In this document: piece by piece, positions 33,868-59,162 of the stretch
Position numbering within the stretch: position 1 is the stretch's first letter
Layout: every line of letters starts with the position of its first letter
Virus record (IMG/VR): IMGVR_UViG_3300046820_000495
Coordinates: 11,203-75,202 of that record
Length of the DNA stretch: 64,000 bases
DNA from: a virus
Reading direction: 5' to 3' (one strand)
Notes under the pieces: model-generated
The model's database searches: none
What the model was told of the DNA's origin: nothing
The model's input: only the letters and a program-made list of their open reading frames with translations
Program-made: the position numbers and the translations under genes

Positions 33868-34475
33868 AATCCTAGCTCATTGAACGCCCATGCACGTTCT
33901 GTGCAGTTATAACACTCGCCACATCGACCTTCTGTTTGTGCTGTACAACTATGAGTAAGTTCTATTAGAGGCCATATATCAAAGACATTGAACAAGTCTA
34001 ATGTGTGCCTTTTGTCAACTAGTGCAAAAGGAATAGTTGTCCCGGGCAAATTGACCTTGTCCGGTCTTGCTGGATATTCTCCTGGCATTTGAACAGGAGG
34101 GTGTGCCTGACTACCGTAAAAGCAATGTTCAATGTTGTATGTTGCTCTTGCTTCTCTTTCACCACTACGTCCTTGCTGACTATGATGTAGTGTTGGGTCT
34201 CCTACTTGTATAGGAGCTGGCAATTCTATGCCAAGTATTTCGTTAACTTTATCAACGATTGGCTTGACATAGTTCCAAGCACCATCGGGCCTAGCAACTG
34301 TAAACGGAATCAACTCGTGGTCGCTGCCTGACATTTTCTTTTCTAGTGCCAAGATATAAAGTAGTATAGCACTATCTGCTCCACCACTAAGCATTACCCC
34401 GATGCGTTTTTTATCTGTTGGCAATGCTATTTCAACTTGCCGCTTGTTGCCTTCTGGCCCAACTATTACAATCAT
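33846..34475 (-). CDS. QueC-like (7-cyano-7-deazaguanine synthase-like) PP-loop protein
   Basis: LSGGADS; THSC...CGECYNC.ER zinc site. Confidence 0.72.
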   Translation of the reverse strand: MIVIVGPEGNKRQVEIALPTDKKRIGVMLSGGADSAILLYILALEKKMSGSDHELIPFTVARPDGAWNYVKPIVDKVNEILGIELPAPIQVGDPTLHHSQQGRSGEREARATYNIEHCFYGSQAHPPVQMPGEYPARPDKVNLPGTTIPFALVDKRHTLDLFNVFDIWPLIELTHSCTAQTEGRCGECYNCTERAWAFNELGFQDPGSM

Positions 34476-35850: not shown

Positions 35851-35930
35851 GTAATGCTCTTAGCGAGTAAGTTATTTATAACATACTATGAAAACTTAAA
35901 CTATCGTTTAGATGTGCCAAAAGTACCTAC

Positions 35931-37106
35931 TTAATACTCCAAGAAGTTAATACCTTCGATGACATCGCCATCAAATAACATATCCATAGGATGTTTTTTG
36001 TTTGCAAATTTATTTGATGTCCAACTATTCTTTTTCTCGTTGAAATCCCACCAGCAACTAAAGCCTAGCATAATATGAATGCGCGGCGGCGCAGTTCTAG
36101 ATAGCGCATAGGCACGGTGGCTTGTGTTGGTGTCCCAACTATATCCGTATCCTGCTTCTAAATGCTTTGGTTCAAATCCCTCTTGCTCAAGAACATAATC
36201 AGGATGTGTAACAATTGGAATATTGATACGTAGGTTGCATGTCATAGCTTCGTCTTTATGCCATGTTACGCCAGCATATCTGTCTTGGCCCACTGGGCCT
36301 TCGTGTTCAGAATAAATGATACGAATAGCAGTTCTAACCATGGTCCGCTTAAAACTGTTTAGGAAAGTTCCCAATGACTTATATTGACTTGCAGGTGTTC
36401 TATAAACAAGCCCCATTGTATCAAAGTGACTATTCTTTTTATTCAATGGCATTGAATCGACGCTATGGTTTGAGTAAGGGTTTGATACACCTACTGTTCC
36501 GGGTCTATGATTACCTTGTGTGTGCTCGTGTATGTTTGCAGTATCGCCGTCTAGGTGTTTAGGATTATAAGTTAAACCAAGACCGCCGTAGCTCAAATCC
36601 TTTCTAACTCTATTAGCATCAGGAAGCCTATAATTCCACTCACCAAACTCTTTTAAAGCTTCTAGGGTGTCTGTTGTTAGTTGTTGAACATCAATGGACT
36701 TAGGAAGTTCAAATTTGATTAAAGGTGCATAATTTCTTTTTGGAGGGACGCTACAAACGGGCTCTGAAATTTTAAAAGGAGCAATCAGATCTAGATACCT
36801 GGCTGTTATCATGGAATCTGGGATGGCATCTAAATCGTCAACAATAATATTCTTTCTCTTGTCGTTGTTTTTAAATTGTGCCATTTTCTTAACAGCGTAT
36901 TCGTCAATTGTAACTTTCTTAAGAACTTCTTCTTTTTCTCGTTCCATTCTTTGAAAATTAGCAATATCTCGAAGACGCTTTTCTTCAGCACGTTCTTCTT
37001 CTAGTTTCTTAGACATTGCAAGAACAGCTTCGGCAGCTCTATTTGCACGTTCTTGAGCTGATTCAACTGCCGCTACTTCTGCTTCAACTTTATCAAAAAT
37101 GTTCAT
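35931..37106 (-). CDS. AspH-like 2OG-Fe(II) oxygenase with N-terminal coiled coil
   Basis: WHKD...RINIPIVT...WDTNTSH...RIHIM. Confidence 0.7.
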   Translation of the reverse strand: MNIFDKVEAEVAAVESAQERANRAAEAVLAMSKKLEEERAEEKRLRDIANFQRMEREKEEVLKKVTIDEYAVKKMAQFKNNDKRKNIIVDDLDAIPDSMITARYLDLIAPFKISEPVCSVPPKRNYAPLIKFELPKSIDVQQLTTDTLEALKEFGEWNYRLPDANRVRKDLSYGGLGLTYNPKHLDGDTANIHEHTQGNHRPGTVGVSNPYSNHSVDSMPLNKKNSHFDTMGLVYRTPASQYKSLGTFLNSFKRTMVRTAIRIIYSEHEGPVGQDRYAGVTWHKDEAMTCNLRINIPIVTHPDYVLEQEGFEPKHLEAGYGYSWDTNTSHRAYALSRTAPPRIHIMLGFSCWWDFNEKKNSWTSNKFANKKHPMDMLFDGDVIEGINFLEY

Positions 37107-38089
37107 TTGTTAATCCAACCTTTGTACTTTTCATAATGTGGTTCAAGTGCCTTTAGCCACTCGTTAATCTTTGGACGGCCTTTAACAGCCATAATAATCT
37201 TGGGCTTGGCCAAGTCTGCTCCGTGCATAAATGCTCCGTTGTTAAACACAAATGTATTTGTATCAGGTGGCAAATCTACGTATGTTCTTTTTTCGTGTGG
37301 GATACGATTTGCACTAACACCATATGCCGCACCTGTTCTAACGCTGATAGGTTTTGGATCATACTCTGCTGTGCGCTCTGGCCACTTGCTGATCCAGAAT
37401 GTAGGACCATCGTTTGTGTCCCAAATCATGATACGTAAGCTATCTGGCCACGGATAGATAACTGCGTCTGGATCAATGTGTGGAGTTACTTCGTTGATGT
37501 TAGACCATAATACAACCTTCTCAACACTATGGAAAGGCAAGCAACTGAAGATCTGCTCAAACATCTTTGGAAAGTGGCTGGTCCAATCATCTACCACTGT
37601 ATTCTTATAGTTAAATTTGGTATGGTCTACGTCTGGGTGTAGATAGCAACATAAGCCTTTCCAAAACTGTGTTTCATTTAGGCCACGTGTGATGTCAGCT
37701 TGCTTTTCATTCCACAGCTTCCAGAACAGGTCCCAGTCATCTGGTTCAATCTTAGGCACATCCAATGGTACCCATGCAATAGGTGACCACTTAGGATCTA
37801 CCAATGCCATTTCTGGCCAGGCTGCAGGGCTAATGTAGCTTAAGAAACCTACATCAACATTGGGCATATGAAAGACCTTGCCTCCTAGTCTGACCCACTC
37901 TTCAAACGGATTGCGCCCGTTTAATAACCAAAATGCAGAATGATGATCTAGTACTACCCATTCCCCTGGATGTAAGTCTGCAGGGAGTGTTTGTCCTGGA
38001 CCTAGTGTTATTGTTTTGCCTGTTAGCCTACTGGTACGCCAATTTACATGGGCCAGTATCGTTTCTTTAGGTGGGATGAGCAGTGACAT
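37103..38089 (-). CDS. Putative 2OG-Fe(II)/cupin oxygenase
   Basis: PHID...FVFNN...MHGA...K; TAACTA 5 nt before ATG. Confidence 0.55.
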   Translation of the reverse strand: MSLLIPPKETILAHVNWRTSRLTGKTITLGPGQTLPADLHPGEWVVLDHHSAFWLLNGRNPFEEWVRLGGKVFHMPNVDVGFLSYISPAAWPEMALVDPKWSPIAWVPLDVPKIEPDDWDLFWKLWNEKQADITRGLNETQFWKGLCCYLHPDVDHTKFNYKNTVVDDWTSHFPKMFEQIFSCLPFHSVEKVVLWSNINEVTPHIDPDAVIYPWPDSLRIMIWDTNDGPTFWISKWPERTAEYDPKPISVRTGAAYGVSANRIPHEKRTYVDLPPDTNTFVFNNGAFMHGADLAKPKIIMAVKGRPKINEWLKALEPHYEKYKGWINK

Positions 38090-39592: not shown

Positions 39593-39621
39593 ATTATATT
39601 TATATTCAATCAGAATGTCAA
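39593..39621 (-). promoter_or_regulatory. Overlapping sigma70 and T4-late-type promoters
   Basis: TTGACA-17-TATAAT with TATAAATA overlapping the -10. Confidence 0.8.
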
Positions 39622-42855: not shown

Positions 42856-43578
42856 TTATACGTGTGTCCTTGCTGGGAAGCAATGTGGTAGATCGTTAAA
42901 CAAAGTCCAATACTTTACCATATTGCCATCTTTGTCAAGATCAAATGTGTCGTTCTTGGCTTGTACGTTGGGTACCTTGCCAAATGCATTTGGGAATTTT
43001 TCCCACATGCGTTCATAGTAGTTGCGTGGCATAACATCAATGATCAAGTGTGTTCTCCATGTTGTGCCGTAGTTAACTGCTGTGTGTGGAATCTTGTTAT
43101 TAAGTTCCCACAACTCACCGGGTTCGATATGATCACGAACTCCGCCGTTTTCTAAGTCATAGCTGACATGATACAAATAGCAATCTGGATTGGTTTCTAG
43201 TGCTATGTTGTAACGTCTACTGTAACGCTGTGTAAAACGTGTATCAGTGTGCATAATGGTATCGCCACCTGGTTGCATGTATGCAATGTCAGCTTGACAT
43301 AACACTGGATCAGCAATGCCAGTTATCTTCATAAGATAATTAATAGGCTGGCGGAACGCACACATGATATCAATTTGCGATTTGGTAATAGGTCCAGTGA
43401 TATCATAAAAGCCTGCAATACGCTCTGGGCTATTAGGCAAATACATCAGGTAAGTGTCATCACCTTTACGCTTGTCAGAGTCAGACCATTTATATGCCTT
43501 AAGCAAGGCATTTGCTTTGTCAAAAATTTTAGGGTCAAATACAGCCACCTTACGTGCTGTCATTCCTGGTTCGTACAT
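42856..43578 (-). CDS. AspH-like 2OG-Fe(II) oxygenase
   Basis: MHTD...WELNNKIPHTAVN...RTHLIID. Confidence 0.8.
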   Translation of the reverse strand: MYEPGMTARKVAVFDPKIFDKANALLKAYKWSDSDKRKGDDTYLMYLPNSPERIAGFYDITGPITKSQIDIMCAFRQPINYLMKITGIADPVLCQADIAYMQPGGDTIMHTDTRFTQRYSRRYNIALETNPDCYLYHVSYDLENGGVRDHIEPGELWELNNKIPHTAVNYGTTWRTHLIIDVMPRNYYERMWEKFPNAFGKVPNVQAKNDTFDLDKDGNMVKYWTLFNDLPHCFPARTHV

Positions 43579-46223: not shown

Positions 46224-47045
46224 TTATTCTGCGTTCTTACCACACTTGGCACGTTTGGCATTGGTTAGGGCACCAAAGTCCACTGGCCATTCTGAACCTA
46301 CAGCTACTTCTTTAGCGCCAGCTGGGTATTCATAACTGACACCAGCTTCCTTTTGTATCTGTGCTATGTTTACACGGAACTTGGTCAAGTCATTGCCCAG
46401 GTTAACATAAGGCCTGGTATGCGGGAATCTCCAACCTGCTATTTCTTTTGTAGCATTATTGATTACAATTTTATAATACCCATGTGGTACAATAACTCGA
46501 CCTGCACCAATTGTCTCATTACCAGCACCATACATAGCGCCAACGTATATGGTAAAAGCCTGGTTGCGTTGGACTGTCCAACCTCTTATAGATGTCTCTA
46601 ACAACTTCCATATTCCCCGATTTAAAGAGCCGTGTTGAGGATACATGTTTGTCATTAAAAAACTTTCGTACTCCACAATGGCTGACCATGATAAATCACC
46701 GTCTGGGGCCGCATGTCCTTTGTCATAGCCTGTGCCAGCGTAGTCATCTGGCTTGGCACCTGTGCCGCCCAAACTTTGATCAGCAACAAAGGCATTGGTG
46801 CGTGGGAAGCATCCTAATGCGTTGGGCGGTGTTAGTGTATAACTTACATACGCAGGAATCTTAACAGGAGCGTCATACGCTACTAGATAAGCTTCACGGC
46901 AAATTGGTTTGACGTCGCGCTTGGTATCGGCGAAGCCGTAGGGTGCATGAACTTTACAAGCGGCCAAGGGCAATGGCGGTCGTTGTTCCCATGCATGTGA
47001 TAGGTTAGCAAAAAGTGCAAATGCTAATACTACTAGGTGTTTCAT
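46224..47045 (-). CDS. DNA/RNA non-specific endonuclease with signal peptide
   Basis: Sec-type signal; YDKGH, SFLMTNMYPQ, LNRGIW..LE. Confidence 0.9.
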   Translation of the reverse strand: MKHLVVLAFALFANLSHAWEQRPPLPLAACKVHAPYGFADTKRDVKPICREAYLVAYDAPVKIPAYVSYTLTPPNALGCFPRTNAFVADQSLGGTGAKPDDYAGTGYDKGHAAPDGDLSWSAIVEYESFLMTNMYPQHGSLNRGIWKLLETSIRGWTVQRNQAFTIYVGAMYGAGNETIGAGRVIVPHGYYKIVINNATKEIAGWRFPHTRPYVNLGNDLTKFRVNIAQIQKEAGVSYEYPAGAKEVAVGSEWPVDFGALTNAKRAKCGKNAE

Positions 47046-47071: not shown

Positions 47072-48529
47072 TCAGTGAACGGGTATATTATGTAATGTTT
47101 GGAATCTTACAGCGTCTGCCCAGGAGTTGACCAAGGGTTCGCCTTTGATATTTAGGCTGGTGTTCATTAGGATAGGGCAACCTGTACGACGATTCCATTC
47201 TTCCAGGATACTACGGAACACAGGATTATCTTGACGTGTTACTGTTTGAACTCTACTGGAATTGTCCACATGGCACACACCCGGCAACATGTCTGGTAGT
47301 CTGCAACGTGCCACAAACTGCATATAAGGACTAGACTTAACAGGCATATCAAAGTATGTGTCTGCAGATTCTGCTAATACAGCAGGCGCAAATGGCCTAA
47401 ACTGTTCACGCCGCTTAATAGAGTTCATTCTAGGTTTTGCATCCGACCCTCTAGGATCGCAAAGTAAACTTCGGTTGCCAAGTGCCCTTGGACCAAACTC
47501 GGCTCTGCCGTTAGCCAATGCCACAACACGGCCTGCTTCAAGGTCATCCACAATTGCATTAACATCTACGTCCCTTTCAATATTTGTGCCCAAGTAAGGG
47601 CCTTCCCACGTTAAATGGCGTTGGGTGTGTGCGGCCACTGCTCCTAAAGCACTTCCAGCATCGCCTGGATTGGGCATAATCCATACTTCTTTAAATAAAC
47701 CGCTACGAGCAATAACGCTGTTGGCTACACAATTAAGCGCAACGCCTCCCATGAATACCAAGTTGTCACTGACAGTATTAGAGCGCATCACTAATATTGT
47801 TTCTAGTAGGTATTCTTCAATTAATTTCTGTACACTAGCGGCAATGTCAAATTTACTAGCAGTGGGATCCTTAGGTTCCCACCATAAGCAACCACGATGT
47901 AAATTATGACGTAATTTAAAGTCAGGTGGCGCCCATTTAGTAAAGAATGTTTCGCGTAATTCTTCTAAGTATTTGGGTGTGCCGTGTGCGGCCATGCCCA
48001 TTAAAATATATTCTTCTTCGTTGGGCTTTAGGCCCAACCACTGTGTCATTGCTGTGTAAAATAATCCCATGCTGTCTGGGTATTTTTTAGCCCAGCGGCG
48101 TGTCATTTGATCTTTACGAGCTTCCCATATGCTTACACTATCCCATTCGCCAATTGCATCTACTACTAATATTGACGCATCTTCAAATGGACTTGTATAA
48201 TATCCTGCTGCCGCATGGCTTTCATGATGCCCTACATAATCAACAGGCAGGGAATTTAATCCTACTAAACGTAATTGATCACGCGGACTTACAATCCAAG
48301 GACGCTGTCCGGAAAATAGTCTGCGTAAATTCTTTTGAAAAGGCTTTTCAAACCAAACAATTTGTGTAGGTTCACCATATTGTCGCATTTCTTTAACCAT
48401 GTCAGCATCTAACATAGTATCATTCTTTACTCTACTGTAGCGTTCACTGTGTGCCGCCCAAACAATTCGATCCCCATCGATCAGTGCCATGCTGGCATCG
48501 TGGTTCTGCGATGTAATACCTAGTATCAT
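47072..48529 (-). CDS. Carbamoyltransferase (NodU/CmcH/TobZ family)
   Basis: HDAS, ERYSRVKND, HHESHAA, GGVALNCVAN, EFGPRALGNRS, FRPFAP, NTSLN. Confidence 0.94.
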   Translation of the reverse strand: MILGITSQNHDASMALIDGDRIVWAAHSERYSRVKNDTMLDADMVKEMRQYGEPTQIVWFEKPFQKNLRRLFSGQRPWIVSPRDQLRLVGLNSLPVDYVGHHESHAAAGYYTSPFEDASILVVDAIGEWDSVSIWEARKDQMTRRWAKKYPDSMGLFYTAMTQWLGLKPNEEEYILMGMAAHGTPKYLEELRETFFTKWAPPDFKLRHNLHRGCLWWEPKDPTASKFDIAASVQKLIEEYLLETILVMRSNTVSDNLVFMGGVALNCVANSVIARSGLFKEVWIMPNPGDAGSALGAVAAHTQRHLTWEGPYLGTNIERDVDVNAIVDDLEAGRVVALANGRAEFGPRALGNRSLLCDPRGSDAKPRMNSIKRREQFRPFAPAVLAESADTYFDMPVKSSPYMQFVARCRLPDMLPGVCHVDNSSRVQTVTRQDNPVFRSILEEWNRRTGCPILMNTSLNIKGEPLVNSWADAVRFQTLHNIPVH

Positions 48530-48530
48530 A

Positions 48531-48644
48531 TCAATAGATAAATGGATCTCGTTTGCGTAATTCTTCCATACGCTTTTTAATTCTGCGTTTTTCTTTATAA
48601 TTGCGGTACGGGGCTAATAGTAAATCAAGTAATTTCTTAAACAT
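48531..48644 (-). CDS. 37-aa basic peptide directly upstream of the carbamoyltransferase (not in ORF track)
   Basis: MFKKLLDLLLAPYRNYKEKRRIKKRMEELRKRDPFIY; SD AGGAG; TAAGTA upstream. Confidence 0.7.
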   Translation of the reverse strand: MFKKLLDLLLAPYRNYKEKRRIKKRMEELRKRDPFIY

Positions 48645-48664
48645 GGCTGTCTCCTGTCAATTAC

Positions 48665-50734
48665 TTATTGCCACGTACCAGTATCGTTGTATCTGTGAGT
48701 AAAAGAAAAGTCCCAAGTCTTACGTTCTTCTAATAATGCTATTTCTTCTGAATATTCTTCATTGGTAAACTGGCTTTCTCCACCACTGCCAGGCAATGCT
48801 AGCTTACGAGCACGTCGAGCCGCCACAGAGTCAGCACGACTAAACTCACTGTAGTGCCAAGCATCGTCACGTTGAACAAAATCGTAGTAGAAATCCGCTA
48901 TCCAATGTCCATTTGTGTCAATGTCAAACTTGAATACACCTGTAAAGTTACAGCCCATCCTATCACCAAACTCTCTATTACTGAATTCTGGGGTAATAGT
49001 CATGTCTAGTGTATAAGCACCGCGACTGCGCCACATTAGTCGTAGCAATGGCCATATTTCATTTACAAGACTATCAGCAAAATCACTGATTCCAGGCTTG
49101 ATAATGTTGTAGTCAAACACTTCGTACTCTACTTCACGTACCACGCTGTTATCAAAGTTTAATTGGCATATATCATTGACACCACTGCGATTGGTAAAGT
49201 CAATATTTTCCTCTGTTACAATATTATTAAGGAATATATTAAATGTAGTCAGGCGAATTAGTCTATGCACCTTGCTGTTAGCCGAGTCCTTGGTAATCCA
49301 ATTACCTTCAAAATAGCTTTTAGCAATATTATACTTGTCAGTGTTCTGCGCTAAGATAGTGTCAGGCGGAATAGTAAAACCGTGTCCGGCGCTTACGTTG
49401 GTTAAATTGTTGTTGCGGTTACGCCAAATAAAGGTCATTGACTCATAAAAGTCCTGTGGAGTTTCTGTAGGGAAACCAATAATCCAATTTGAAAACGCTT
49501 CTACCCCTACCTCCTTACCGTGACGCAGATTCTGTTCCATTTCCTCTACAGTGACACCCTTGTCCATGTCGGCCAAGACCCGGGTACTACCCGATTCAAT
49601 TCCGTAGCTTAGGCTAATACAGCCTGATTCCGCCAGGTCTTTGTAGTATTCCAAGTCCATACGTCCGTCACAGCGAGCATAACCTGTCCATGCAATTTTC
49701 ATTTCACGGGCAATTACGCCTTTACAGAACGCACGTAGCTCATTTAAGTTCCCATTTACCAAGCTGTCCAAGAACCAAATAACATTGACGCCACGATTAA
49801 AATACAAGTCTGCTACTTCTTCTAAGATGTTACGTGCCATGCGTCCGCGATACTTCCAAAAGTGTGTTTCGCTACAGAATACACATTTAGCTGTACAGCC
49901 GCGGCTTAGTTCTGCGTTAACACCGTTAGGAAATCCATAGTCTAGTGGGTCAAAATAGCTATAATCCGGACTAGGCAGTTGATCTAAGTCTAGTCGCTGA
50001 CCATCTGTTTGACGTAACCAGCGTTGCTTACCATCAAACTGGCCTGTTTCTATTTCTTCTAATGCTTCTAGTAGTAGCTGTTCGCCTTCCCCTGTGATAA
50101 TATAATCATATTCAGATTCAGGTTGCCAGTAACTTTGATGACATTGTGGGCCACCTACCATTACTAATATATGCGGATAGCGGCGCTTTAATTCTTTTAC
50201 CATCCACTTGGTAGGTTCTTGATTACAGTAGTAAAGACTAAAGCCCACCACAGTGGGATTCATTTCCCCAATTTTATCTAAATATTGATTTAAAAAAGGC
50301 TCTACGTATTTGTGCAAATATTCGTAATAATGATTGTCCATCCAACGCCATTCGCGTGAACCATCCCAAGGGTTAAAGTCCAAGCCTGGCCAGTTACCGT
50401 GGTCTTTGTGTGCTTTGGCGTTTAAATCAAATGCGTGTGTAGCGTAACCAGCGTCACGAGTAATAGCGGCTAATCGTGCTATGTTGTAAGGAGGAAAGTT
50501 ATGTGCCCACTCTGGCAGCAACATAAACACAATGCTGGTAGCTCGTGTAGCAGGTGTTATCGCCACTTGCGTTAAATTACTCTGTGGTTTAGCACGAGCA
50601 AAGGGTTGCAGGGCTTCTAGAACCTTACGGTGTTTGGCATCATAGTCTTCTTCTGTTTTAGCTACAGGCTTGGTTTCTTTTAAGGCGTAAATCTTTTGCC
50701 AGCCGTATACACTATTTTCTTTGGGTTTAGTCAT
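48665..50734 (-). CDS. B12-binding radical SAM enzyme
   Basis: VGFS...VGGP...GEGE B12-binding domain; SRGCTAKCVFC; GIESGS; GFPTET. Confidence 0.9.
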   Translation of the reverse strand: MTKPKENSVYGWQKIYALKETKPVAKTEEDYDAKHRKVLEALQPFARAKPQSNLTQVAITPATRATSIVFMLLPEWAHNFPPYNIARLAAITRDAGYATHAFDLNAKAHKDHGNWPGLDFNPWDGSREWRWMDNHYYEYLHKYVEPFLNQYLDKIGEMNPTVVGFSLYYCNQEPTKWMVKELKRRYPHILVMVGGPQCHQSYWQPESEYDYIITGEGEQLLLEALEEIETGQFDGKQRWLRQTDGQRLDLDQLPSPDYSYFDPLDYGFPNGVNAELSRGCTAKCVFCSETHFWKYRGRMARNILEEVADLYFNRGVNVIWFLDSLVNGNLNELRAFCKGVIAREMKIAWTGYARCDGRMDLEYYKDLAESGCISLSYGIESGSTRVLADMDKGVTVEEMEQNLRHGKEVGVEAFSNWIIGFPTETPQDFYESMTFIWRNRNNNLTNVSAGHGFTIPPDTILAQNTDKYNIAKSYFEGNWITKDSANSKVHRLIRLTTFNIFLNNIVTEENIDFTNRSGVNDICQLNFDNSVVREVEYEVFDYNIIKPGISDFADSLVNEIWPLLRLMWRSRGAYTLDMTITPEFSNREFGDRMGCNFTGVFKFDIDTNGHWIADFYYDFVQRDDAWHYSEFSRADSVAARRARKLALPGSGGESQFTNEEYSEEIALLEERKTWDFSFTHRYNDTGTWQ

Positions 50735-51890
50735 CTTGCCATTCTGCTAAAAAATCAGGCCATAATTCATTAAATGAATACTTTTTATCATTTAAGTATT
50801 TTACTTCTGTCGCGTGTGTCCAGTCAGTGAATTCTAGTTTCTTTATTAACCATTCATCACCTGTGCGACCAATGGTTGGGATAAGCTGGCTTCTAATGTT
50901 TTCTAGTGCTGACATATCATAGCCGCTTGAGCTGTATTTGGCTATACATAGATCCAACTCTGCTAAAGCTTTGCGCTTAAAGTTGTCTGGCAATTTGAAT
51001 ACGTTTAAGCTACGAATGTTTTGTATAGCGCACCAGTATACTTCATTGAAATAACCTTCTCCGATAACGAAGTCATAGTACTCGCATAAGTTAAATGCTG
51101 AGTATGTACAGTATAAGGGATGTGCGTTAATAGTTTTGACACCTTGTGCATTAAGATATCGCAAGTTAGACACAAAGGTTGTCCATTCTGCACCGTGACG
51201 TACATATTCAAATCTCTTGTCCACTGTGTCAAAGCTGATGCCCCACTGTGCGTTTGGGTTGGCTATCAACTTGGGTGCTATTGTGTTATTGGGCAGGTCA
51301 ATGCTTAGATTGCTTAGTATGTAATAGTTCTTTGTAGGCAGTAAATCAATTAGCCGATGATTTTGCTTTTGTAGCAAAGGCTCGCCGCCTAGTAGATTAA
51401 TTGTTTCAATGCTGTCAACAGAGTTGATATTTTCAGCTATTAGCGTAAACAAGCTGTCTTCTGCTTCGGCCTTGTTGGCATTGATCTTAATACCTTTGAG
51501 TACACTCCATTTACTGCTGAAATATTCATAGCAGTAATTGCAGGCCAGATTACACAAGTTGCTCCAGCGTAGATCCAGCTTTTGAAGTTCAAATGTTTCT
51601 TTTGTTGCTGATTCAAACTCTTCAAATTTTTGAACACTATTGGTATCAACTCGTTCACTTCTGGCCCCCATTGCTTCTAGCTTTTGGCATTGGGCACATT
51701 GTGGATGCCAGCGTTCTTCTACAATGGCCTGACGTATGCCTTGTGCTGTAGGACCTTGTAGTATTTCTTGTATGCTTTGCTTGTTGATATCGCCTATGTC
51801 CATTTCAGCACTACAGCAGGTTTTAACCCCGCCGTCTGCGCCTAAGAAAATAGTATTAAATGGGTAAGCGCAAAAGGTTTCTTTATTCAT
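50727..51890 (-). CDS. Radical SAM protein with N-terminal Twitch-like domain
   Basis: FCAYPF...GGVKTCC...CAQC precedes CNLACNYC; GGEP. Confidence 0.88.
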   Translation of the reverse strand: MNKETFCAYPFNTIFLGADGGVKTCCSAEMDIGDINKQSIQEILQGPTAQGIRQAIVEERWHPQCAQCQKLEAMGARSERVDTNSVQKFEEFESATKETFELQKLDLRWSNLCNLACNYCYEYFSSKWSVLKGIKINANKAEAEDSLFTLIAENINSVDSIETINLLGGEPLLQKQNHRLIDLLPTKNYYILSNLSIDLPNNTIAPKLIANPNAQWGISFDTVDKRFEYVRHGAEWTTFVSNLRYLNAQGVKTINAHPLYCTYSAFNLCEYYDFVIGEGYFNEVYWCAIQNIRSLNVFKLPDNFKRKALAELDLCIAKYSSSGYDMSALENIRSQLIPTIGRTGDEWLIKKLEFTDWTHATEVKYLNDKKYSFNELWPDFLAEWQDD

Positions 51891-53655
51891 TGTTTAATAA
51901 TTTATTCATTAATGCATCAGCAAGTTGCTCGTGGTATTCCACGTGTGCATGATAAAATCCATGAACTTGTGAATCGTTTCGCCAGTCAATGAGTTTGCTC
52001 AAGCACATGTCATGATCAACAATGCTTCTTAACTTGTGAGTATTGGTTGCCATACACATAAAACGTGGATTCAGCTTTTTATCCTGGACAAAACTGGCAT
52101 AGTCATCCATGGTGCAATGTAGATACTGTACTAATAATCTGCCGCCAAGTTCCTGACTCAGCAGGTCCAGATAGCGCAAAGAAGCATAGTAGTTAAAAAA
52201 TAAAAAGTATTCGTCCCCAATATGTTCAACAAATTCATTGTGGAAACGCTCGCTAGGCCAGTATTTAGGATGACCAATGATTGGGGTAGCAGGCCATGGC
52301 CATCCAAATCGTTCTTTTTTGTCAAAGTACATCCAGCGTTCCATGCTAGTTGCGCCAACTAGTATTAGATCATATTCAGTTAGTACACCTGAGGACAAAT
52401 CTTGTTCAATCATGTAAATCATTCCTTGCATACCGCTGCCAGGTATGCCACGATTTAAAATAGGAACATCAAGTCGTTTGGCAAGTTGTCCGGCCCAACT
52501 GAGTTTGGACTGAGTATCTAATACTGTTTTATCGCCCAAGAATGGATAATCAGTGTAAAAGTCATTGGCGCCAGTGGCTGAATATTTTCGTTTTATCTTA
52601 TCAACTTCTCCACGTGACGCGGGCGTTGGCCAAAACAAATGATCAGCCAATTCACTGCCTGCTGTGTGACTGCATCCGTACGCTACAACTCTATTAAATT
52701 TAATAGTTTGACCGTTCCGAGTGATAGACTTTAACGGAAGCATTTCCCAGTCTGAATGAAGTATTTCAATAACCTCAGGTCGCAATTGATACAATGAATT
52801 TTTAAAAGTCTGATTGAAGAATTCTTTCTTCCAATCACCTATTACATTGAGTCCTTTAAGAAACTCACCAAGGACTTCGGCACTTTCAGGCGTTATATGG
52901 AAACGATGTACTGTGACCATAAAGCCGTTTTCAGCTACTGCTCTGTCTAATTCATTTTTTAATTGGGCAGGTGTTAATCTTTCAGCCAGATTAAATCCAC
53001 CAAACTGACCAACTGCCCATTTATCCTTGGACTCTACCCAGAGTTCTCTACTTTGTGCATATATCCAATACAAGCTTGCTTCACTGCTGTTTAGTACAGG
53101 ACGAGTCAATATGTCATAGTTCATTGAACTCAAGTGTTCTAATAAACTCCTAACAAAGGTGTTGCGCCAAATAAAGGGTGTAATTGGAAACTGTTCTCTA
53201 ACCGAGTCAACATCAATTCCCAGTATTCTTGCAGATCCAATTTGATCTGTACTTGGCGCATGATCTTTGTCAAATACCACTACCTTTAAGTTGTTGTCAA
53301 TAAAGAAGTCGCCAAGAGACAAATTTCTAATTAGAAAGTTCTTGCTATCTAGTACTACGCTGTAGTCAGCTTGGCTTTCACTTGCGGCCCATAACTTTAA
53401 TATTTGTTGTCTATGCCATCCATCAACTGCAACTAATTTAGGTCCTGTTTTAACATTCAGTGTCCAGCCTGGCATATTTGATTTAATATGATCGTTGATC
53501 CAATCAATTACACGCTGATAAATGTCTTCATCTTCGACCACTATGGTCCAATTCTTTTCACCTTGCCAGAATTTTTCCAAGCTGTGTGCATGATAATATA
53601 GCGTGGCTAGGTCACCACTGTAAGTTACTGTAATTAATTCTGAGGTATATCGCAT
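51883..53655 (-). CDS. Fusion of a glycosyltransferase-like (DUF6492-like) N-domain and an SGNH/GDSL-like C-domain
   Basis: GWHRQQILKL...VLDSKN; YGCSHTAG...SWAGQLA...NRGIPGSG...H. Confidence 0.6.
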   Translation of the reverse strand: MRYTSELITVTYSGDLATLYYHAHSLEKFWQGEKNWTIVVEDEDIYQRVIDWINDHIKSNMPGWTLNVKTGPKLVAVDGWHRQQILKLWAASESQADYSVVLDSKNFLIRNLSLGDFFIDNNLKVVVFDKDHAPSTDQIGSARILGIDVDSVREQFPITPFIWRNTFVRSLLEHLSSMNYDILTRPVLNSSEASLYWIYAQSRELWVESKDKWAVGQFGGFNLAERLTPAQLKNELDRAVAENGFMVTVHRFHITPESAEVLGEFLKGLNVIGDWKKEFFNQTFKNSLYQLRPEVIEILHSDWEMLPLKSITRNGQTIKFNRVVAYGCSHTAGSELADHLFWPTPASRGEVDKIKRKYSATGANDFYTDYPFLGDKTVLDTQSKLSWAGQLAKRLDVPILNRGIPGSGMQGMIYMIEQDLSSGVLTEYDLILVGATSMERWMYFDKKERFGWPWPATPIIGHPKYWPSERFHNEFVEHIGDEYFLFFNYYASLRYLDLLSQELGGRLLVQYLHCTMDDYASFVQDKKLNPRFMCMATNTHKLRSIVDHDMCLSKLIDWRNDSQVHGFYHAHVEYHEQLADALMNKLLNNE

Positions 53656-54917
53656 GAAGAGTCCACGGGCTGATTCTTTGACGATCTGTCATTGATTTCG
53701 TGTGTAAAGATTCTATCTATACTGCTGTACTGTCCACATGTGTCTGCACAATAACTTAAACGTCCATTTTCAACTTGATCTATTTTCCATGTATCTGCAA
53801 ACACACGATCTAAATGTTGTGCGCTTAGAATTTCTGTTAGCGAATATGTATCCAAGCTAAAGTGTTCCCAACCGTAATCATTCATATGCTTGTGAAGCTG
53901 TAAGCTACGAGTGTCTGTGTAGACACCATTCAAATGTGTGCCAATGTAACAGCAAGGCATCACGCGGCCAAAGTTGTCTACAAAGATTTCTTTACCGCCT
54001 GTCCAAGTACGACTTTTACATTTAATTTCACAACTGTTATACTTGGTGTTGTCTTCTGCAAAGATTCTATGTGTGTATACTTCTGCTACTTGTTGTTGGA
54101 ACGCTTTGGATATTTGCTTTGTTTCTTTTAACTTACGATAGTCATCTACGTTAAAAGGATAAAATGTTACTTCAGCTTCGCCTTTGGGTTCTGCTAGGTT
54201 ACGGTTCTTTGCTTGCGTTGGCGCTTCGATAATGTAATCTAACTTGCCATCTTTGTCTAGTACAGGCATTTTAGTCAGATACTCGCCGTTGTCAACGCCT
54301 AGTGCTTTCTTGGGCACAAACTCAGCAAACTTCATTTGTTCTGCTAGTGCTTGTGCCGCTTCAATTTGATGCTCGTTATGGCGGAAGATTAAGTAGTCCC
54401 AGTTAGCTGAGCCACCTGCGTTAATGAATGCTTTGACGTTTTCCATAAGCACACTCCAGTTAACATTACGGCGATACAAATGATTGGTATCTTCTAAGCC
54501 GTCGATGCTAAATGTAATTTGCCAGTAACTGGGATTATGGTCGCGGGGGAATTGGGCAAACAGCGCACCCATTTTGGCCCACCAATCGGGCTTTCGCATA
54601 CCACCATTGGTGTTCATGCGTACTGCTGTGGTCTTGCTTACTGAGGCAATGTAATCGCAAATTTCGTAAGTGTCCTTTGCTGTACCAGGGTCTCCGTGTA
54701 CGCCACAAAATAAGATCAGCTTGCAACGCTGTATAACTTCTGGTGGGAAATACTGCTTGAACTTGTCCAAGGTAATTTGACCAATTTCTAAGTCTGGTCT
54801 AGCATGTGGACTGTTGTTGTGAAAGCGTACACACATGGGGCAGGCGGCATTGCAACCATTGGTAAGCTCAATGTGCATTTGCTCTATTTCTTCTAAGGTC
54901 CAGAACGCTTTATCCAT
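53634..54917 (-). CDS. Radical SAM protein with C-terminal Twitch/SPASM-like domain
   Basis: CNAACPMC, HGDP, TNGG, SIDG; C...GRVMPCC...C...C. Confidence 0.88.
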   Translation of the reverse strand: MDKAFWTLEEIEQMHIELTNGCNAACPMCVRFHNNSPHARPDLEIGQITLDKFKQYFPPEVIQRCKLILFCGVHGDPGTAKDTYEICDYIASVSKTTAVRMNTNGGMRKPDWWAKMGALFAQFPRDHNPSYWQITFSIDGLEDTNHLYRRNVNWSVLMENVKAFINAGGSANWDYLIFRHNEHQIEAAQALAEQMKFAEFVPKKALGVDNGEYLTKMPVLDKDGKLDYIIEAPTQAKNRNLAEPKGEAEVTFYPFNVDDYRKLKETKQISKAFQQQVAEVYTHRIFAEDNTKYNSCEIKCKSRTWTGGKEIFVDNFGRVMPCCYIGTHLNGVYTDTRSLQLHKHMNDYGWEHFSLDTYSLTEILSAQHLDRVFADTWKIDQVENGRLSYCADTCGQYSSIDRIFTHEINDRSSKNQPVDSSCDIPQN

Positions 54918-56142
54918 TATGTGCCTTTACTACTTGTCCATAAGCTTCAAATGTTGCAAAGAAGTCTTGTTCTCTGTAAACATCGTGTGTCTTAATTGTA
55001 CTTAAGAATTTGGCCCATTCTTCTTCTGAACAAGGAGTACCATTTTCAATAAAGCCAATGATGCCGGGCAATTGCCACCAGGCATGTTCATAGTTCTTGG
55101 GAATATTGTGCAGTCTATCAAGCACAGCTTCTTTGATGTCAGTGGGCAAACTGCCCATGTTAAAGTGTGCAGGGCGATGTACTAGGTTTAAGTATAAACC
55201 AAAGTCTGTAAAGTTATCATAGTAAGCATCTAGTGTTTCAGGCAAGTTGTAGATGTTAATACTGCTTAATGTAATACACCAGCTTAGGCTTAGGTTGCCG
55301 TGCTGTTTAGCAAATGCCGATGCCTTCTTCATGTTGTCTACTGCTTCTGTCCATACAGCTGGATACCGCATGTATTCAAATTGTTCGCCTGTGCCATCAA
55401 TACTAAAGCTAAGGTTAACATGCTTGAAGTTCTTCCAAACTTCTGTTTCTTCTGGCCATGTTGTACCGTTGGTGTTGTAGTGTAACTCAATGTCTTTGGC
55501 ATAACCGTTGTCTACACAAAGCTTTAGCACTTCCCACATTTTCTTACTAAGGAATGGCTCGCCACCATAAAAGTCAAACTGTCTAATGGTGCTTAGGTTA
55601 TTAGCCAGGTCATCCCAAAACGGACTGTCTTCATCATATGTTTGATGATACTTCTTCATGTTAATAGAGTAATCTTTATAGCTTACACGATTAGCATGAT
55701 TCAAGTCATAATCCTCTTTCATCCATAAACTACTAATAGTCGGATGGCATGTACGGCATTTGATGTTGCAGGTGTTACCCAAGTTAAGTTCAAACTTGGC
55801 AAGACCTGTAAAAGGCTCTGCACCTTCGTACTCTATAGCATGAAAGTACTTTTCATTGTCACGCAGGCGTTTGCTCTTACGTCCGCCATCTTCTTCTTGC
55901 CAGCACTGATTACACGCACGATCGCGTACACCTGCGGCCAAATTGGCTTTGATACCCTGGGCAATAGGATTGTTAAAGTTTTCTTCAATTGTTTTACTAC
56001 CTAAGAACCAATCTTGTTTGCCACCCATGTAGTTGTATGACTCATCAATCATACAGCACATTTTACTAGAGCCGTCATTGTTACCGCTCATGCCATGTAG
56101 TGCATTCACGCACCAGCTACGTTCATTCTGTTGGTTCATCAT
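54910..56142 (-). CDS. Radical SAM protein with N-terminal Twitch-like domain
   Basis: WC...KMCC...CNQC; CNIKCRTC; GGEP; TNG; SIDG. Confidence 0.88.
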   Translation of the reverse strand: MMNQQNERSWCVNALHGMSGNNDGSSKMCCMIDESYNYMGGKQDWFLGSKTIEENFNNPIAQGIKANLAAGVRDRACNQCWQEEDGGRKSKRLRDNEKYFHAIEYEGAEPFTGLAKFELNLGNTCNIKCRTCHPTISSLWMKEDYDLNHANRVSYKDYSINMKKYHQTYDEDSPFWDDLANNLSTIRQFDFYGGEPFLSKKMWEVLKLCVDNGYAKDIELHYNTNGTTWPEETEVWKNFKHVNLSFSIDGTGEQFEYMRYPAVWTEAVDNMKKASAFAKQHGNLSLSWCITLSSINIYNLPETLDAYYDNFTDFGLYLNLVHRPAHFNMGSLPTDIKEAVLDRLHNIPKNYEHAWWQLPGIIGFIENGTPCSEEEWAKFLSTIKTHDVYREQDFFATFEAYGQVVKAHNG

Positions 56143-57493
56143 AGGTTAGATATATCTGCTTACATAGTTTGTAAAATTCCTCGTACTCGGGAAATAGTTC
56201 AATTAGGTTAGTACCTAGTCTGTTGTCGTTTTCGTTAAAGAAGCTGAAAAAGTCTCTGCGGCCTGCACGAATATGCTCGGGCGTTAATTCATGTTCTTTC
56301 ATGTAGCCAGTCACACGCTTGAACTTTTCATACTCAACAGCCGTAAAGAATTCAGGGTGACTCTTGATAAATTCCAAGTTGCCATCCATGTAAGGAATAA
56401 AGTCTGGTGTTAAAATCTTAATCATCCAGTGCGGTGGTTCCTTCAAGTAAGGCGTATCAAAAGATACTGCATCCTTGCCGAACTCAGTGCGCCATTCAAT
56501 TACTTTTTCCAGTAGCGCACGGAATGTTGTAACGCATAGCACATTGAATGTACACATTAGGTTAATTGTAGCACCAGTTTTCATAACTGCTTTCATGTTG
56601 CGTTCCCAGTGGGCACAATCCATACCTGTACGCATATACTCTGCTTGTGCGCCCCAACCTTCAATTGACGTAAAGAAGCTGAACTTACGAATCTTCTTTT
56701 GTGCCAACAAGCTTTCTACACGCTCGATTAACGAGTCTACCTTGGCAAAACTTACGCCCAAGTTACTGTTTAGTGTAATTTCCAACTGTGGTGCTGGTTC
56801 TGTTTCTAATAGATCAAAGAACTGCATGGCACCCTTGTTCATCAAGGGCTCGCCACCTGTGATGCGAAGTGTATGTAAATCGTGCTTGAGACTTGGCCAC
56901 CATTTCCAAAACGCTTCAATGTACGGGTTCTCATCTTTAGGACCATAGTAAGTGCCTGTTTTCAAGAACTCAATACCATACTGATTGTATGTTAAGTCGT
57001 GGTTACCAAACTTCTTAATTTCTTCCATCCATGCTGTGCTGGCTTGTGGACTGCAATAGCCACAGCGATAGTTACAGTTATTACCAAAGCTGACTTCTAA
57101 GTAACGTGGGTTAATAGGTGCGTCCCAAGGCAACTCTGCCAGCTTTTCAATGTGTGGTGCGGCAAAGTCTGAACTACTGTGAATCATACGATCGCTAATA
57201 TGCTCGCCCGGCAAGTCTTCAATGTTCCAGCAGTAGTAACATTCATCTGGACGGCCGCCTTCTAACATGGTCTTGCGCTGTTCCTTTTTCCACTTGGTGT
57301 TGTGTAATGCGCTGGGATCAGCGGCAATTTCATCTAGAGGAATATGATGAGGACGTGGATGATAGCAACTGTGATTATCACCTGTGTGCAGATACAAGGT
57401 TTGGTGCAACCATTTCATTGCACAAAAACCTGGCCCTACTTTGTTTAATCTGTCTCTTACACTTTTAATGTGTACTACTCTATGATCTGACAT
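56123..57493 (-). CDS. Radical SAM protein with N-terminal Twitch-like domain (SCYH variant)
   Basis: FCAMKW...HSCYHP...ECYYCW; CNYRCGYC; TGGEP. Confidence 0.88.
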   Translation of the reverse strand: MSDHRVVHIKSVRDRLNKVGPGFCAMKWLHQTLYLHTGDNHSCYHPRPHHIPLDEIAADPSALHNTKWKKEQRKTMLEGGRPDECYYCWNIEDLPGEHISDRMIHSSSDFAAPHIEKLAELPWDAPINPRYLEVSFGNNCNYRCGYCSPQASTAWMEEIKKFGNHDLTYNQYGIEFLKTGTYYGPKDENPYIEAFWKWWPSLKHDLHTLRITGGEPLMNKGAMQFFDLLETEPAPQLEITLNSNLGVSFAKVDSLIERVESLLAQKKIRKFSFFTSIEGWGAQAEYMRTGMDCAHWERNMKAVMKTGATINLMCTFNVLCVTTFRALLEKVIEWRTEFGKDAVSFDTPYLKEPPHWMIKILTPDFIPYMDGNLEFIKSHPEFFTAVEYEKFKRVTGYMKEHELTPEHIRAGRRDFFSFFNENDNRLGTNLIELFPEYEEFYKLCKQIYLTYDEPTE

Positions 57494-57501
57494 TGTTATC
57501 C

Positions 57502-59091
57502 TTATCTTAGTTTATATATCTTACTTGCTCTGTCGCTGAGGTTAACTAACTCCGTCAACTCCGGAAATGTTTCTTTAAAGTCTGTCCCGCGGCGTCGATC
57601 ATGTTCTGTATAGAAAGCATGAAAGTTTGCTCTAGCAGTCAACGCTTCTTCTGGCGTGTATGGATTACTTGCCCAATCCAATAATCTACGCACTTTATCT
57701 ACTTCATAGTCCTTGAAACCTCTAAAAGGATTTTCCTTAGTTTCGAGGTTAGCTTCCATGAATTCAATGCTTTCACGCAGTACTTCTAAGTCACCAGTTG
57801 GAAGTATTTTTAAACTTAACCAATCTGGATCCATCAACATGGGCACATCAAACCAAACAAGCTGTCGTGTAGTGTTAAACTCTTGGCGTAGGGCCAAGAT
57901 GTTTTTAACATACTCCAGCCATCCTGGTATACTTAGTGCATTGAAAGTAACAATGAAAGTTAAACTGTGCTTGGTGCCTTTACGCAAGTACTCTCTAACG
58001 TTCTTGTACATAACATCAAAGTCTAGTCCATTGCGAATATACTCTGCTTGCTTGCCCCATGAGTCCAGGCTACAGTAAAGCATAAAGTGATCAATGGCGT
58101 TGCGTTCTTCTAATACTGTCAAGGACTTGATAAACTTCTTCCATTGTCCTTTAGGAGGGCAACAATTACTTGTAATGCTTAGATGTAGTTCATCACCTTT
58201 GGGATGTTCTGCTACATAATCAAATACCTTAAACGTATTCTTATCCATAAGCGGTTCGCCGCCAGTCATGCGGAATGTTTGTAAGCCTGTGTATACTGTA
58301 GGGAACCATTCCCAAAACGCTGTTAGATAAGGATTGTCTGGTCCGTTATCTGGCATGCCTTGTTGTACCATCCAACGGATATCATTGTGTGTACGCTTGT
58401 CAGCTAAGACATATGGCCCGTACTTTTCTGATTCCTTCATCCACTCTGTACTTAGATGAGGACTGCAATATGCACACTTAAAATTACAAGCTTGGTTAAA
58501 GTTTACTTCTACATAGCGTGGGGTGGCATTACCTGTGTGCAAGTCTACTGCAAGGTCTTCTAGCATACCAGGACGATATACATCCTTGCTACGATAAGCA
58601 CGATCGCTTAACTGTTCGCCAGAGTCTTCAATGTCCCAACAGAAGTTGCACTCTTCGGGCCGCTCACCTTTAAGCATCTTTAGTCGCTGTTCCTTCTTGT
58701 GCTTGGTGTTGTGTATAGCACTAGAGTCTGCTGTAATTTCTTCTAAGGGTATGTGGTGTGCAGGAGGATGATAGCACGAATGTGTCTTGCCTGTAGGGAT
58801 ATGGATACTAACATTATACCATTTGGCCAAGCACATACTTGGACTAATTTCATTTACAATTTCAAACACCTTGCGGGCTTCGTGAGCGTAAATGCTTTTA
58901 ATTTCTGTTTTCTTACCTGTAGCTAAATTGCCGTCGCCGCGAACATTATGAACCAATTTGAGTTTGTCTTTGTCTGACTGACTCATAAAGCTGTACAGTT
59001 CGGGTTCTTTAATGGCTAGAATTTTTGCACGAATATTGTCTTCGCTAAAGGGCTTTGGTAAGTTTTTTGTAATTTTGTCAAAGATATTCAT
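57502..59091 (-). CDS. Radical SAM protein with N-terminal Twitch-like domain (SCYH variant), paralog of the previous gene
   Basis: MCLAKW...HSCYHP...ECNFCW; CNFKCAYC; TGGEP; extended -10 TGnTATAAT 8 nt before ATG. Confidence 0.88.
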   Translation of the reverse strand: MNIFDKITKNLPKPFSEDNIRAKILAIKEPELYSFMSQSDKDKLKLVHNVRGDGNLATGKKTEIKSIYAHEARKVFEIVNEISPSMCLAKWYNVSIHIPTGKTHSCYHPPAHHIPLEEITADSSAIHNTKHKKEQRLKMLKGERPEECNFCWDIEDSGEQLSDRAYRSKDVYRPGMLEDLAVDLHTGNATPRYVEVNFNQACNFKCAYCSPHLSTEWMKESEKYGPYVLADKRTHNDIRWMVQQGMPDNGPDNPYLTAFWEWFPTVYTGLQTFRMTGGEPLMDKNTFKVFDYVAEHPKGDELHLSITSNCCPPKGQWKKFIKSLTVLEERNAIDHFMLYCSLDSWGKQAEYIRNGLDFDVMYKNVREYLRKGTKHSLTFIVTFNALSIPGWLEYVKNILALRQEFNTTRQLVWFDVPMLMDPDWLSLKILPTGDLEVLRESIEFMEANLETKENPFRGFKDYEVDKVRRLLDWASNPYTPEEALTARANFHAFYTEHDRRRGTDFKETFPELTELVNLSDRASKIYKLR

Positions 59092-59136
59092 TGTATACTA
59101 TTATAACAGTGAACTACTTATATGAGCAACCTGAAC

Positions 59137-59162
59137 AAAAAAAGCCGCACTAGGCGGCTTTT
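59137..59162 (-). terminator. Rho-independent terminator
   Basis: AAAGCCG-loop-CGGCTTT with a 7-nt U-tract on the minus strand. Confidence 0.85.

Follow-up and report, generated by a model that had tools for sequence, protein, structure and literature searches.

A phage operon of six radical SAM enzymes, a carbamoyltransferase and a Stealth-like/SGNH fusion protein: a candidate sugar-tailoring pathway

The 64,000-nucleotide stretch of viral DNA analyzed here (the window; positions 11,203 to 75,202 of IMG/VR record IMGVR_UViG_3300046820_000495) contains a 12-kb operon, at 47072–59091, that encodes six radical S-adenosylmethionine (SAM) enzymes, a protein joining a glycosyltransferase (GT)-like domain to an SGNH-fold domain, a 37-amino acid (aa) peptide, and a carbamoyltransferase. 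The cassette recurs across hundreds of phages and in certain bacteria. Synteny among phages, natural gene fusions, and the occurrence of the same gene set in bacteria support the view that the operon genes belong together in a coherent and conserved pathway rather than being neighbors by chance. We favor, at about even confidence, the reading that the operon encodes a pathway of soluble enzymes for tailoring a sugar, probably to make a virion glycan; its sugar substrate, reaction types, and target are ones that we infer.

Results

Gene content of the operon

Nine minus-strand open reading frames (ORFs), the coordinates of which were all verified, fill the interval, with neighbors either overlapping by 8–22 nt or separated by gaps of 1–20 nt. 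A preliminary description of this DNA had listed nine co-oriented, abutting genes coding for four radical SAM proteins with an N-terminal twitch domain, one radical SAM protein with a C-terminal cluster, one B12-dependent radical SAM protein, a GT-like/SGNH fusion, a NodU/TobZ-type carbamoyltransferase, and a bare 37-aa peptide. The gene arrangement and all of the protein assignments were borne out by the analyses given below, apart from the bareness of the peptide. No membrane segment is predicted in any of the operon proteins. The genes, named g1 to g9, are as follows.

57502–59091, minus strand: g1, N-terminal-twitch radical SAM protein of 529 aa with an N-terminal extension of ~80 aa (NF033640, 319 bits)
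56123–57493, minus strand: g2, N-terminal-twitch radical SAM protein of 456 aa (NF033640, 296 bits)
54910–56142, minus strand: g3, N-terminal-twitch radical SAM protein of 410 aa (NF033640, 300 bits)
53634–54917, minus strand: g4, radical SAM protein of 427 aa, with CxxxCxxC at residues 22–29 and C-terminal SPASM-like Cys clusters
51883–53655, minus strand: g5, DUF6492/Stealth-like GT-A domain (residues 1–276) and SGNH-fold domain (residues 307–590), by Pfam and a structural model
50727–51890, minus strand: g6, N-terminal-twitch radical SAM protein of 387 aa (NF033640, 201 bits)
48665–50734, minus strand: g7, cobalamin-binding (class B type) radical SAM protein of 689 aa, with B12-binding and Radical_SAM domains
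48531–48644, minus strand: g8, micropeptide of 37 aa ending ELRKRDPFIY, with an AGGAG Shine-Dalgarno sequence and a stop codon 1 nt before the g9 start
47072–48529, minus strand: g9, NodU/TobZ/SxtI-type carbamoyltransferase of 485 aa (Carbam_trans_N and Carbam_trans_C)

Gene linkage is conserved among related phages

A synteny comparison across relatives, which had been proposed as a check on the operon, revealed conserved gene linkage. Among 86 related viral loci fetched by protein-guided searches, g1 is followed by g2 in 84, and g3 together with g4 is present in 71. The SGNH gene occurs in 33 of these loci, g6 in 18, and g7 in 10. Two loci (L014 and L015) hold a nearly complete copy of the window operon. 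In L008 (2213–11626), where g1 is 72% and a flanking gene 84% identical, there are seven tandem paralogs of the N-terminal-twitch (N-twitch) enzymes, six of which replace g2 to g7; the tail of the cassette is thus subject to turnover, and its content changes rapidly between related phages. Nearly complete genomes of jumbo relatives (281–374 kb) carry 6–10 N-twitch genes each, at several sites. The window itself derives from a 75-kb record with an estimated completeness of 23%, which implies a jumbo phage with a genome of roughly 300 kb. A megablast search with the 12-kb operon against 50,697 phage records gave no match at the DNA level.

The g1–g2 core is preceded in 72 of the 86 loci by a fixed group of genes, the a-module, which consists of a117, a298, a277GT, a gene of about 205 aa, a298b, and x529. 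Upstream of the a-module are proteins with a phage tail Collar domain and with matches to tail-fiber and virion families of PHROG. In most relatives the genes directly ahead of the g1–g2 core include four that are GT-A-like. Among the a-module products, a298 has an LLxDSD motif and a weak match to glycogenin (GT8) in a profile search of PDB sequences, a277GT weakly matches a mannosyltransferase family, and a298b has the motif VFISYNEPNA...DGD in common with the C-terminal domain of x529. The a298b profile found no match among PDB sequences. In x529, three to six degenerate repeats of ~100 aa resemble the core of the protein's own C-terminal GT-A-like domain; its size ranges from 529 to 875 aa (L010 14427–16016, L041 5967–8594, and others) and exceeds 1000 aa in some loci. 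The a-module was not found in the 75-kb record of the window or in the fragments of its closest relatives, records that are 12–26% complete, so its absence there says little. In Ralstonia phage RsoM2USA, which has been cultured, homologs of a117, a298, a277GT, and a298b and the structural ORFs 356–364 come before the N-twitch gene ORF349; proteomics has confirmed the products of ORFs 356 and 359 as virion proteins (PMC8504454).

Natural fusions were also found among database proteins. In P0257 an N-twitch enzyme is fused with a carbamoyltransferase, and in P0145 an x529-type GT-A-like domain is fused with an N-twitch enzyme, which argues that the N-twitch, carbamoyltransferase, and GT-A-like parts belong to one process. 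Several tandem N-twitch fusions (P0126, P0127, P0128, and P0215) contain two or three units per ORF, including a g3-like unit linked to a g1/g2-like unit. When the a298b profile was compared by hhalign with the N-terminal extensions of the fused N-twitch proteins P0171, P0165, and P0150, the alignments were not significant, and the P0171 extension gave only a weak match to beta-1,4-galactosyltransferase.

The gene set recurs in Bacteroidota

The g1 and g2 orthogroups matched 196 viral stretches, as compared with 4 contigs of metagenome-assembled genomes (MAGs) among 185,579 species genomes, and the wider NF033640 family scored above its cutoff in 4 of 401 sampled Bacteroidota genomes. Three Bacteroidota chromosomal loci contain 2–4 N-twitch paralogs each, with SGNH/GDSL proteins in all three, g7 homologs in two, and a single g9 homolog (33% identity, E 4e-94); a Bacteroidota homolog also falls within the g3 clade. 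The same loci carry a GT2-methyltransferase fusion, GT-C-like and GT11-like proteins, a polysaccharide deacetylase, and methyltransferases. That the phage gene set turns up independently among carbohydrate-active genes of bacteria is, in our view, the strongest argument for a sugar substrate.

The Bacteroidota locus L110 (G083:C2, about 1.21–1.23 Mb) has two N-twitch and two B12 radical SAM genes. Its surroundings encode five PhyH dioxygenases, a WelO5-like halogenase-type enzyme, and a reductive-dehalogenase-like ferredoxin protein, along with a Peptidase_S74 protein (a fiber chaperone domain) secreted by the type IX secretion system (T9SS).

Four N-twitch paralogs and two further radical SAM enzymes

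NCBIfam family NF033640 (N_Twi_rSAM, twitch domain-containing radical SAM protein) has a cutoff of 170 bits, which g1, g2, g3, and g6 all exceed over the full length of the model. Like other members of the family, these proteins carry an N-terminal four-Cys site and a CxxxCxxC motif; they differ in being four divergent paralogs within one operon, and outside phages the g1 and g2 orthogroups are nearly absent. Residues 7–69 of g6 additionally match Pfam SPASM. The g4 protein reaches 50 bits only and hence lies outside NF033640. It combines an N-terminal CxxxCxxC with seven C-terminal Cys; its Pfam SPASM match is under the cutoff (E 0.018), and one locus protein with 29.5% identity to g4 bears a SPASM match of 34.9 bits.

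Among 28 g1/g2 homologs, neither the auxiliary site of g2 (C24, C43, C85, and C88) nor its radical SAM triad (C140, C144, and C147) varies. Many Arg, Lys, and His residues are likewise invariant, which would suit an anionic substrate. The auxiliary cluster of g2 is fully Cys-ligated, as in solved twitch/SPASM enzymes that use the cluster for electron transfer, whereas the auxiliary domain of those enzymes follows the core and that of the N-twitch proteins precedes it. An AlphaFold2 (AF2) model of g2 with a mean predicted local distance difference test score (pLDDT) of 90.6 was searched with Foldseek and gave only generic radical SAM cores (SkfB, SuiB, BlsE, viperin, anSME, and MoaA), with SkfB and SuiB at the top and TM-scores of at most 0.37. 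There is therefore no solved close relative, and no transfer of function is justified. An earlier analogy with BtrN, a twitch enzyme, held at the level of the superfamily, in that a partial TIM-barrel core is common to the g2 model and BtrN, MoaA, anSME, SkfB, SuiB, BlsE, and viperin; a closer link to BtrN was not upheld.

In a tree of the N-twitch proteins, g1, g2, g3, and g6 fall in separate old orthogroups, which suggests that their steps differ and are not redundant. Of the cassette genes, g2 evolves most slowly, with more than 120 database clusters at 77–93% identity. Median identities to the window across loci are 78% for g2 (a figure that is biased upward by the use of g2 peptide patterns to retrieve the loci), 60% for g1, and about 55% for g3 and g4. 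A g1/g2 profile collected 1,116 representatives of 50%-identity clusters at E ≤ 1e-30, and the ESM Atlas returned unnamed clusters only.

In g7, a PF02310 B12-binding domain (36.9 bits, cutoff 32.1) is located N-terminal to a PF04055 Radical_SAM domain (66.3 bits), in agreement with its assignment as a B12-dependent radical SAM enzyme. GenK and Fom3 are cobalamin-dependent radical SAM methylases of class B, and g7 has the domain order of that class; by this analogy g7 is a putative methylase. It differs from the class in its long extensions, one N-terminal (about 140 aa) and one C-terminal (about 250 aa), and in scoring 5–7 times below every equivalog cutoff. None of the characterized equivalogs (ApyD, PhpK, BchE, HpnR, and others) was reached, the best score being 112 bits against a cutoff of 750; the best subthreshold matches were ApyD, TIGR03975 C-methyltransferases acting on ribosomally synthesized and post-translationally modified peptides (RiPPs), and PhpK.

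The g5 protein models as a Stealth-like transferase joined to an SGNH fold

The g5 protein matches DUF6492 over residues 20–204 (56.3 bits, cutoff 22.9), and its structural model (pLDDT 84) shows two domains. Residues 1–276 align over ~250 residues with GlcNAc-1-phosphotransferase (GNPTAB; Z 18.3) and CpsY (Z 16.7), while generic GT-A folds align at Z 12–13, under the Stealth-type values. Residues 307–590 align with SGNH carbohydrate esterases of the CE2/GDSL type at Z about 12, among them the phage G7C tail fiber gp63.1. The fusion thus models as a Stealth-like sugar or sugar-phosphate transferase linked to a carbohydrate-esterase fold. The SGNH block I motif, AYGCSHTAG in g5, is conserved as AYGCSxTAGxE in relatives. 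Ser329 is invariant in the alignment rows that include the SGNH domain, and the C-terminal His569 is nearly so; a catalytic Asp was not identified. The SGNH half is the part of g5 that is conserved in relatives, where it is often standalone.

The two halves of the g5 model thus align with the folds of Stealth proteins such as CpsY and GNPTAB on one side and of SGNH esterases and acyltransferases, with the block I Ser kept, on the other. The sequence searches gave no such likeness: g5 did not match the Stealth or GDSL Pfam models at the sequence level, a profile of the SGNH domain found no match among PDB sequences, and hhalign of that profile with the bacterial GDSL neighbors was not significant. 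No description of a two-domain fusion of the g5 type was found in the literature.

A conserved micropeptide accompanies the carbamoyltransferase

The g9 protein contains both domains of NodU/TobZ-type carbamoyltransferases at scores above their Pfam cutoffs, namely the Kae1-like Carbam_trans_N (162 bits) and the YrdC-like Carbam_trans_C (183 bits), and it falls below the NodU equivalog cutoff (153 bits vs 1000). It corresponds to the "Nol-like carbamoyltransferase", which matched 148 phage records, mostly from cyanophages. In viral loci fetched with g9 (n = 80), N-twitch genes are located within 6 kb in 47 and x529-like genes within 6 kb in 46.

The 37-aa ORF upstream of g9 had been described as a bare peptide. 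Its existence was corroborated and its bareness was not, because an ORF ending [LIMV]x[EQ]L[RK][KR]RDPFIY[KR] is present in 68 of 81 sources and adjoins the carbamoyltransferase start in 42 of 78 loci. ELRKRDPFIY is the invariant part of g8. The motif ORF has 51 different nucleotide sequences, which vary freely at synonymous positions (five codons are used for Leu, for example, five for Arg, and four for Pro). Hence g8 is a real micropeptide under selection, and it is a conserved partner of the carbamoyltransferase. In RsoM2USA (MG752970.1, L193 about 5030–5136), a small ORF that is missing from the annotation and ends RKQDPFIYK is located between RsoM2USA_201 and RsoM2USA_200; the carbamoyltransferase gene RsoM2USA_199 comes one gene after it, and RsoM2USA_202, a second N-twitch gene, is nearby.

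The saxitoxin protein SxtL is of the GDSL type. In saxitoxin clusters, SxtI has been proposed to act with SxtJ and SxtK, and SxtL, encoded by the next gene, is assigned decarbamoylation (PMC2679770). The SxtI/SxtK/SxtL set parallels the trio of carbamoyltransferase, peptide, and SGNH protein seen here. Like SxtI, g9 has both carbamoyltransferase domains and an HHESHAA metal motif, and it differs in being about 120 aa shorter. The likeness of g8 to SxtJ and SxtK (DUF5989) is limited to position and PFIY, in that g8 is translationally coupled upstream of the carbamoyltransferase and ends in PFIY; unlike SxtK/DUF5989, it has no membrane helix. A DUF5989 peptide ending APFIYTIF is encoded directly upstream of a carbamoyltransferase in a Bdellovibrionota MAG locus (L095). 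Identification of g8 itself with DUF5989/SxtK (PF19451) was considered and rejected, since g8 gave no match to that Pfam family even at E 10 and no BLAST similarity to the L095 peptide.

Operon boundaries and flanking genes

A terminator and a promoter had been reported upstream of the operon. The terminator stands and is a strong one, with a stem followed by a T-run; the promoter did not go beyond a consensus-like box.

59140–59162, minus strand: intrinsic terminator with a 9-bp stem (5 GC pairs) followed by a T-run
59115–59122, minus strand: TATAAGTA box, a tentative operon promoter resembling a T4-type late promoter by consensus match only

The terminator belongs to the upstream gene, which encodes a 119-aa membrane protein, and sets the 5' boundary of the operon. 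It is followed in the direction of transcription by the TATAAGTA box, a TATAAT at 59100–59105, and the g1 start codon. TATAARTA has three matches in the whole window, all of them on the coding strand and upstream of genes, which we regard as weak evidence that the TATAAGTA box is a T4-type late promoter. Shuffled sequences contain more (7.5, against 3 in the window), and the scarcity suggests that the motif is reserved for promoters. Perfect TATAAATA boxes are located on the coding strand ahead of genes at 35873–35880 and 39597–39604 (minus strand).

Thymidylate kinase and nuclease genes are immediately downstream of the operon. The nuclease, a DNA/RNA non-specific endonuclease with a signal-like N-terminus (46224–47045, minus strand), starts 26 nt past the carbamoyltransferase gene, and the order of carbamoyltransferase then endonuclease is also kept in L114, L115, and L116. 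Elsewhere in the window, a seventh radical SAM gene (32896–33867, plus strand) has 23.5% identity to x332, a radical SAM found alongside the cassette in L010 and L013; it adjoins an aldo/keto reductase and a QueC-like PP-loop protein (31419–32237 and 33846–34475). The gene at 42856–43578 (minus strand) codes for an Asp/Asn beta-hydroxylase-like 2-oxoglutarate oxygenase supported by Pfam. Four other oxygenase candidates (32234–32896, 34476–35336, 35931–37106, and 37103–38089) had no match in a Pfam scan.

Discussion

A sugar-tailoring pathway and the points against it

The preliminary description proposed a pathway building an unusual glycan or sugar-like decoration on virion proteins, DNA, or the host surface. 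The coherence of the pathway is sustained by the synteny, the fusions, and the bacterial loci; the substrate, the reactions, and the choice among virion, DNA, and host surface are the parts that the analysis does not establish. The sugar or glycan reading is the one best backed by context, on account of the GT-A-like neighbors, the SGNH proteins, the polysaccharide deacetylase, and the Stealth-like fold of g5. Because the operon proteins have no membrane segments and include no flippase or lipid-carrier enzyme, the chemistry is expected to be cytoplasmic and probably takes place on a nucleotide sugar or a glycan that is bound directly to a macromolecule. The position of the cassette behind fiber or baseplate genes in most relatives and in RsoM2USA makes a glycan on a virion (fiber) protein the most likely destination.

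Under the sugar-tailoring reading, a sugar would be edited either as a nucleotide sugar or when already on its acceptor. The radical SAM enzymes g1, g2, g3, g6, g4, and g7 would each abstract a hydrogen atom at a different position, with oxidation, epimerization, dehydration, or C-C chemistry as plausible outcomes and C-methylation as that of g7. The GT-A domain of g5 would add a sugar or sugar-phosphate and its SGNH domain would add or remove an ester, while g9 with its 37-aa partner g8 may O-carbamoylate a hydroxyl.

Several observations weigh against this reading. The operon contains no gene for nucleotide-sugar synthesis. In the window and its closest relatives (L014, L015, and L008), tail-fiber or GT-A-like genes do not adjoin the cassette and were not found elsewhere in the fragments. 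The proteins a298, a298b, and x529 are assigned as GT-like on the basis of motifs and weak matches. The nearest NCBIfam matches of g3, g4, g6, and g7, all far below cutoff, are mostly peptide maturases, the g2 model resembles generic radical SAM cores only, and L110 is rich in PhyH/WelO5-type oxygenases, which are typical of small-molecule pathways. To our knowledge, no member of NF033640 has been tested, and none has a known substrate, product, or reaction.

Alternative substrates

Some of the same observations fit protein or peptide side-chain modification, in which the radical SAM enzymes would act on residues of a fiber or virion protein or of a RiPP-like peptide (cross-links, epimerization, or methylation) and not on a sugar. 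The best subthreshold NCBIfam matches of g3, g6, g4, and g7 are RiPP maturases, SkfB and SuiB head the Foldseek matches, and fiber-like neighbors are present in phages and in one bacterial locus (the Peptidase_S74/T9SS protein). Yet the persistent GT-A-like, SGNH, and deacetylase partners would be left unexplained, no domain of the RiPP recognition element (RRE) type was detected, and a small-ORF search, which was not exhaustive, found no conserved Cys-rich, hypervariable, or precursor-like ORF beside the radical SAM genes. The two small proteins considered as RiPP precursors were rejected: a117 lacks Cys and a variable core, and g8 tracks the carbamoyltransferase and not the radical SAM genes. 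We judge peptide modification to be unlikely.

DNA hypermodification would place a sugar-like or carbamoylated side chain on a phage base and so evade host nucleases. Radical SAM enzymes and glycosyltransferases do act in known phage DNA hypermodification, all of the operon proteins are soluble, a thymidylate kinase and a nuclease are encoded just downstream, and the very strong conservation of g2 fits a universal small substrate. What makes this reading improbable is the lack, in the cassette and its relatives, of a hydroxymethylase, base-kinase, or DNA-glycosyltransferase homolog, together with the usual position of the cassette behind tail-fiber genes and the occurrence of the bacterial counterparts among polysaccharide-type genes.

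The third alternative, a diffusible small molecule of the nucleoside, aminoglycoside, or cyclitol kind that might be directed against competitors or host defense, also has a low probability. The phage cassettes have no scaffold-forming enzyme, transporter, or resistance gene, and they are linked to structural genes and to multi-repeat GT-like proteins. These features stand against the resemblance of the mix of twitch and B12 radical SAM enzymes, carbamoyltransferase, and SGNH protein to antibiotic and toxin clusters, and against the five PhyH oxygenases, WelO5-like enzyme, and methyltransferase that L110 adds. SxtI, SxtJ, SxtK, and SxtL likewise co-occur in saxitoxin clusters (PMC2679770).

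Host-surface remodeling, by which lipopolysaccharide, capsule, or glycoprotein would be altered to block superinfection or aid release, is the least probable reading, since the phage genes encode no signal peptides, membrane segments, flippase, or polyprenyl-phosphate transferase and radical SAM chemistry requires a reducing cytoplasm, even though SGNH and Stealth-type enzymes often act on surface polysaccharides, the SGNH tail fiber G7C gp63.1 is among the fold matches, and the bacterial loci hold GT-C-like and T9SS-linked genes.

Relation to virion glycosylation

Mycobacteriophage glycosyltransferase genes adjoin structural genes in phage-encoded virion glycosylation, and the cassettes described here resemble such systems in having soluble glycosyltransferase-like genes behind structural genes. 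The known virion glycosylation systems differ in that they use ordinary glycosyltransferases and host sugars, and we know of no report from them of anything comparable to six radical SAM enzymes and a carbamoyltransferase. HypF uses the C-terminal Cys of HypE, and the C-terminal Tyr of g8 might by analogy serve as a carbamoyl acceptor or carrier. An annotation example of phage virion glycosylation is available (PMC11256854).

In a bolder extension of the sugar-tailoring reading, which we consider possible and well short of probable, the N-twitch paralogs would form a new class of sugar- or nucleotide-sugar-editing enzymes, each orthogroup with its own C-H position. Together with the B12 radical SAM enzyme, the Stealth/SGNH enzyme, and a carbamoyltransferase that depends on the micropeptide or passes the carbamoyl group through its Tyr, they might produce a hypermodified fiber glycan in jumbo phages that are very common in aquatic habitats. 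Such a coat, made by the virus, would influence adsorption or shield the virion.

Significance

Literature searches on DUF6492, phage twitch radical SAM proteins, and jumbo-phage radical SAM enzymes with a carbamoyltransferase found no description of the cassette, which agrees with the initial statement that no characterized phage pathway of this composition was known. A marine survey recorded a T4-like genome with 12 radical SAM genes and left them unexplained (PMC5332604), and the cassette genes go unmentioned in the RsoM2USA paper (PMC8504454). The present analysis contributes the loci in bacteria, the two fusion proteins, the resemblance of the g5 fold to Stealth enzymes, a test of the micropeptide at the codon level, and both loci of RsoM2USA.

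The cultured phage RsoM2USA carries a minimal version of the cassette, which makes the question testable. If the sugar reading is true, a role would emerge for an overlooked micropeptide and for the "Nol-like carbamoyltransferase" of marine and freshwater phages, which has long been unexplained, and the operon would represent new radical chemistry on carbohydrates and a viral glycan made by the virus's own enzymes.

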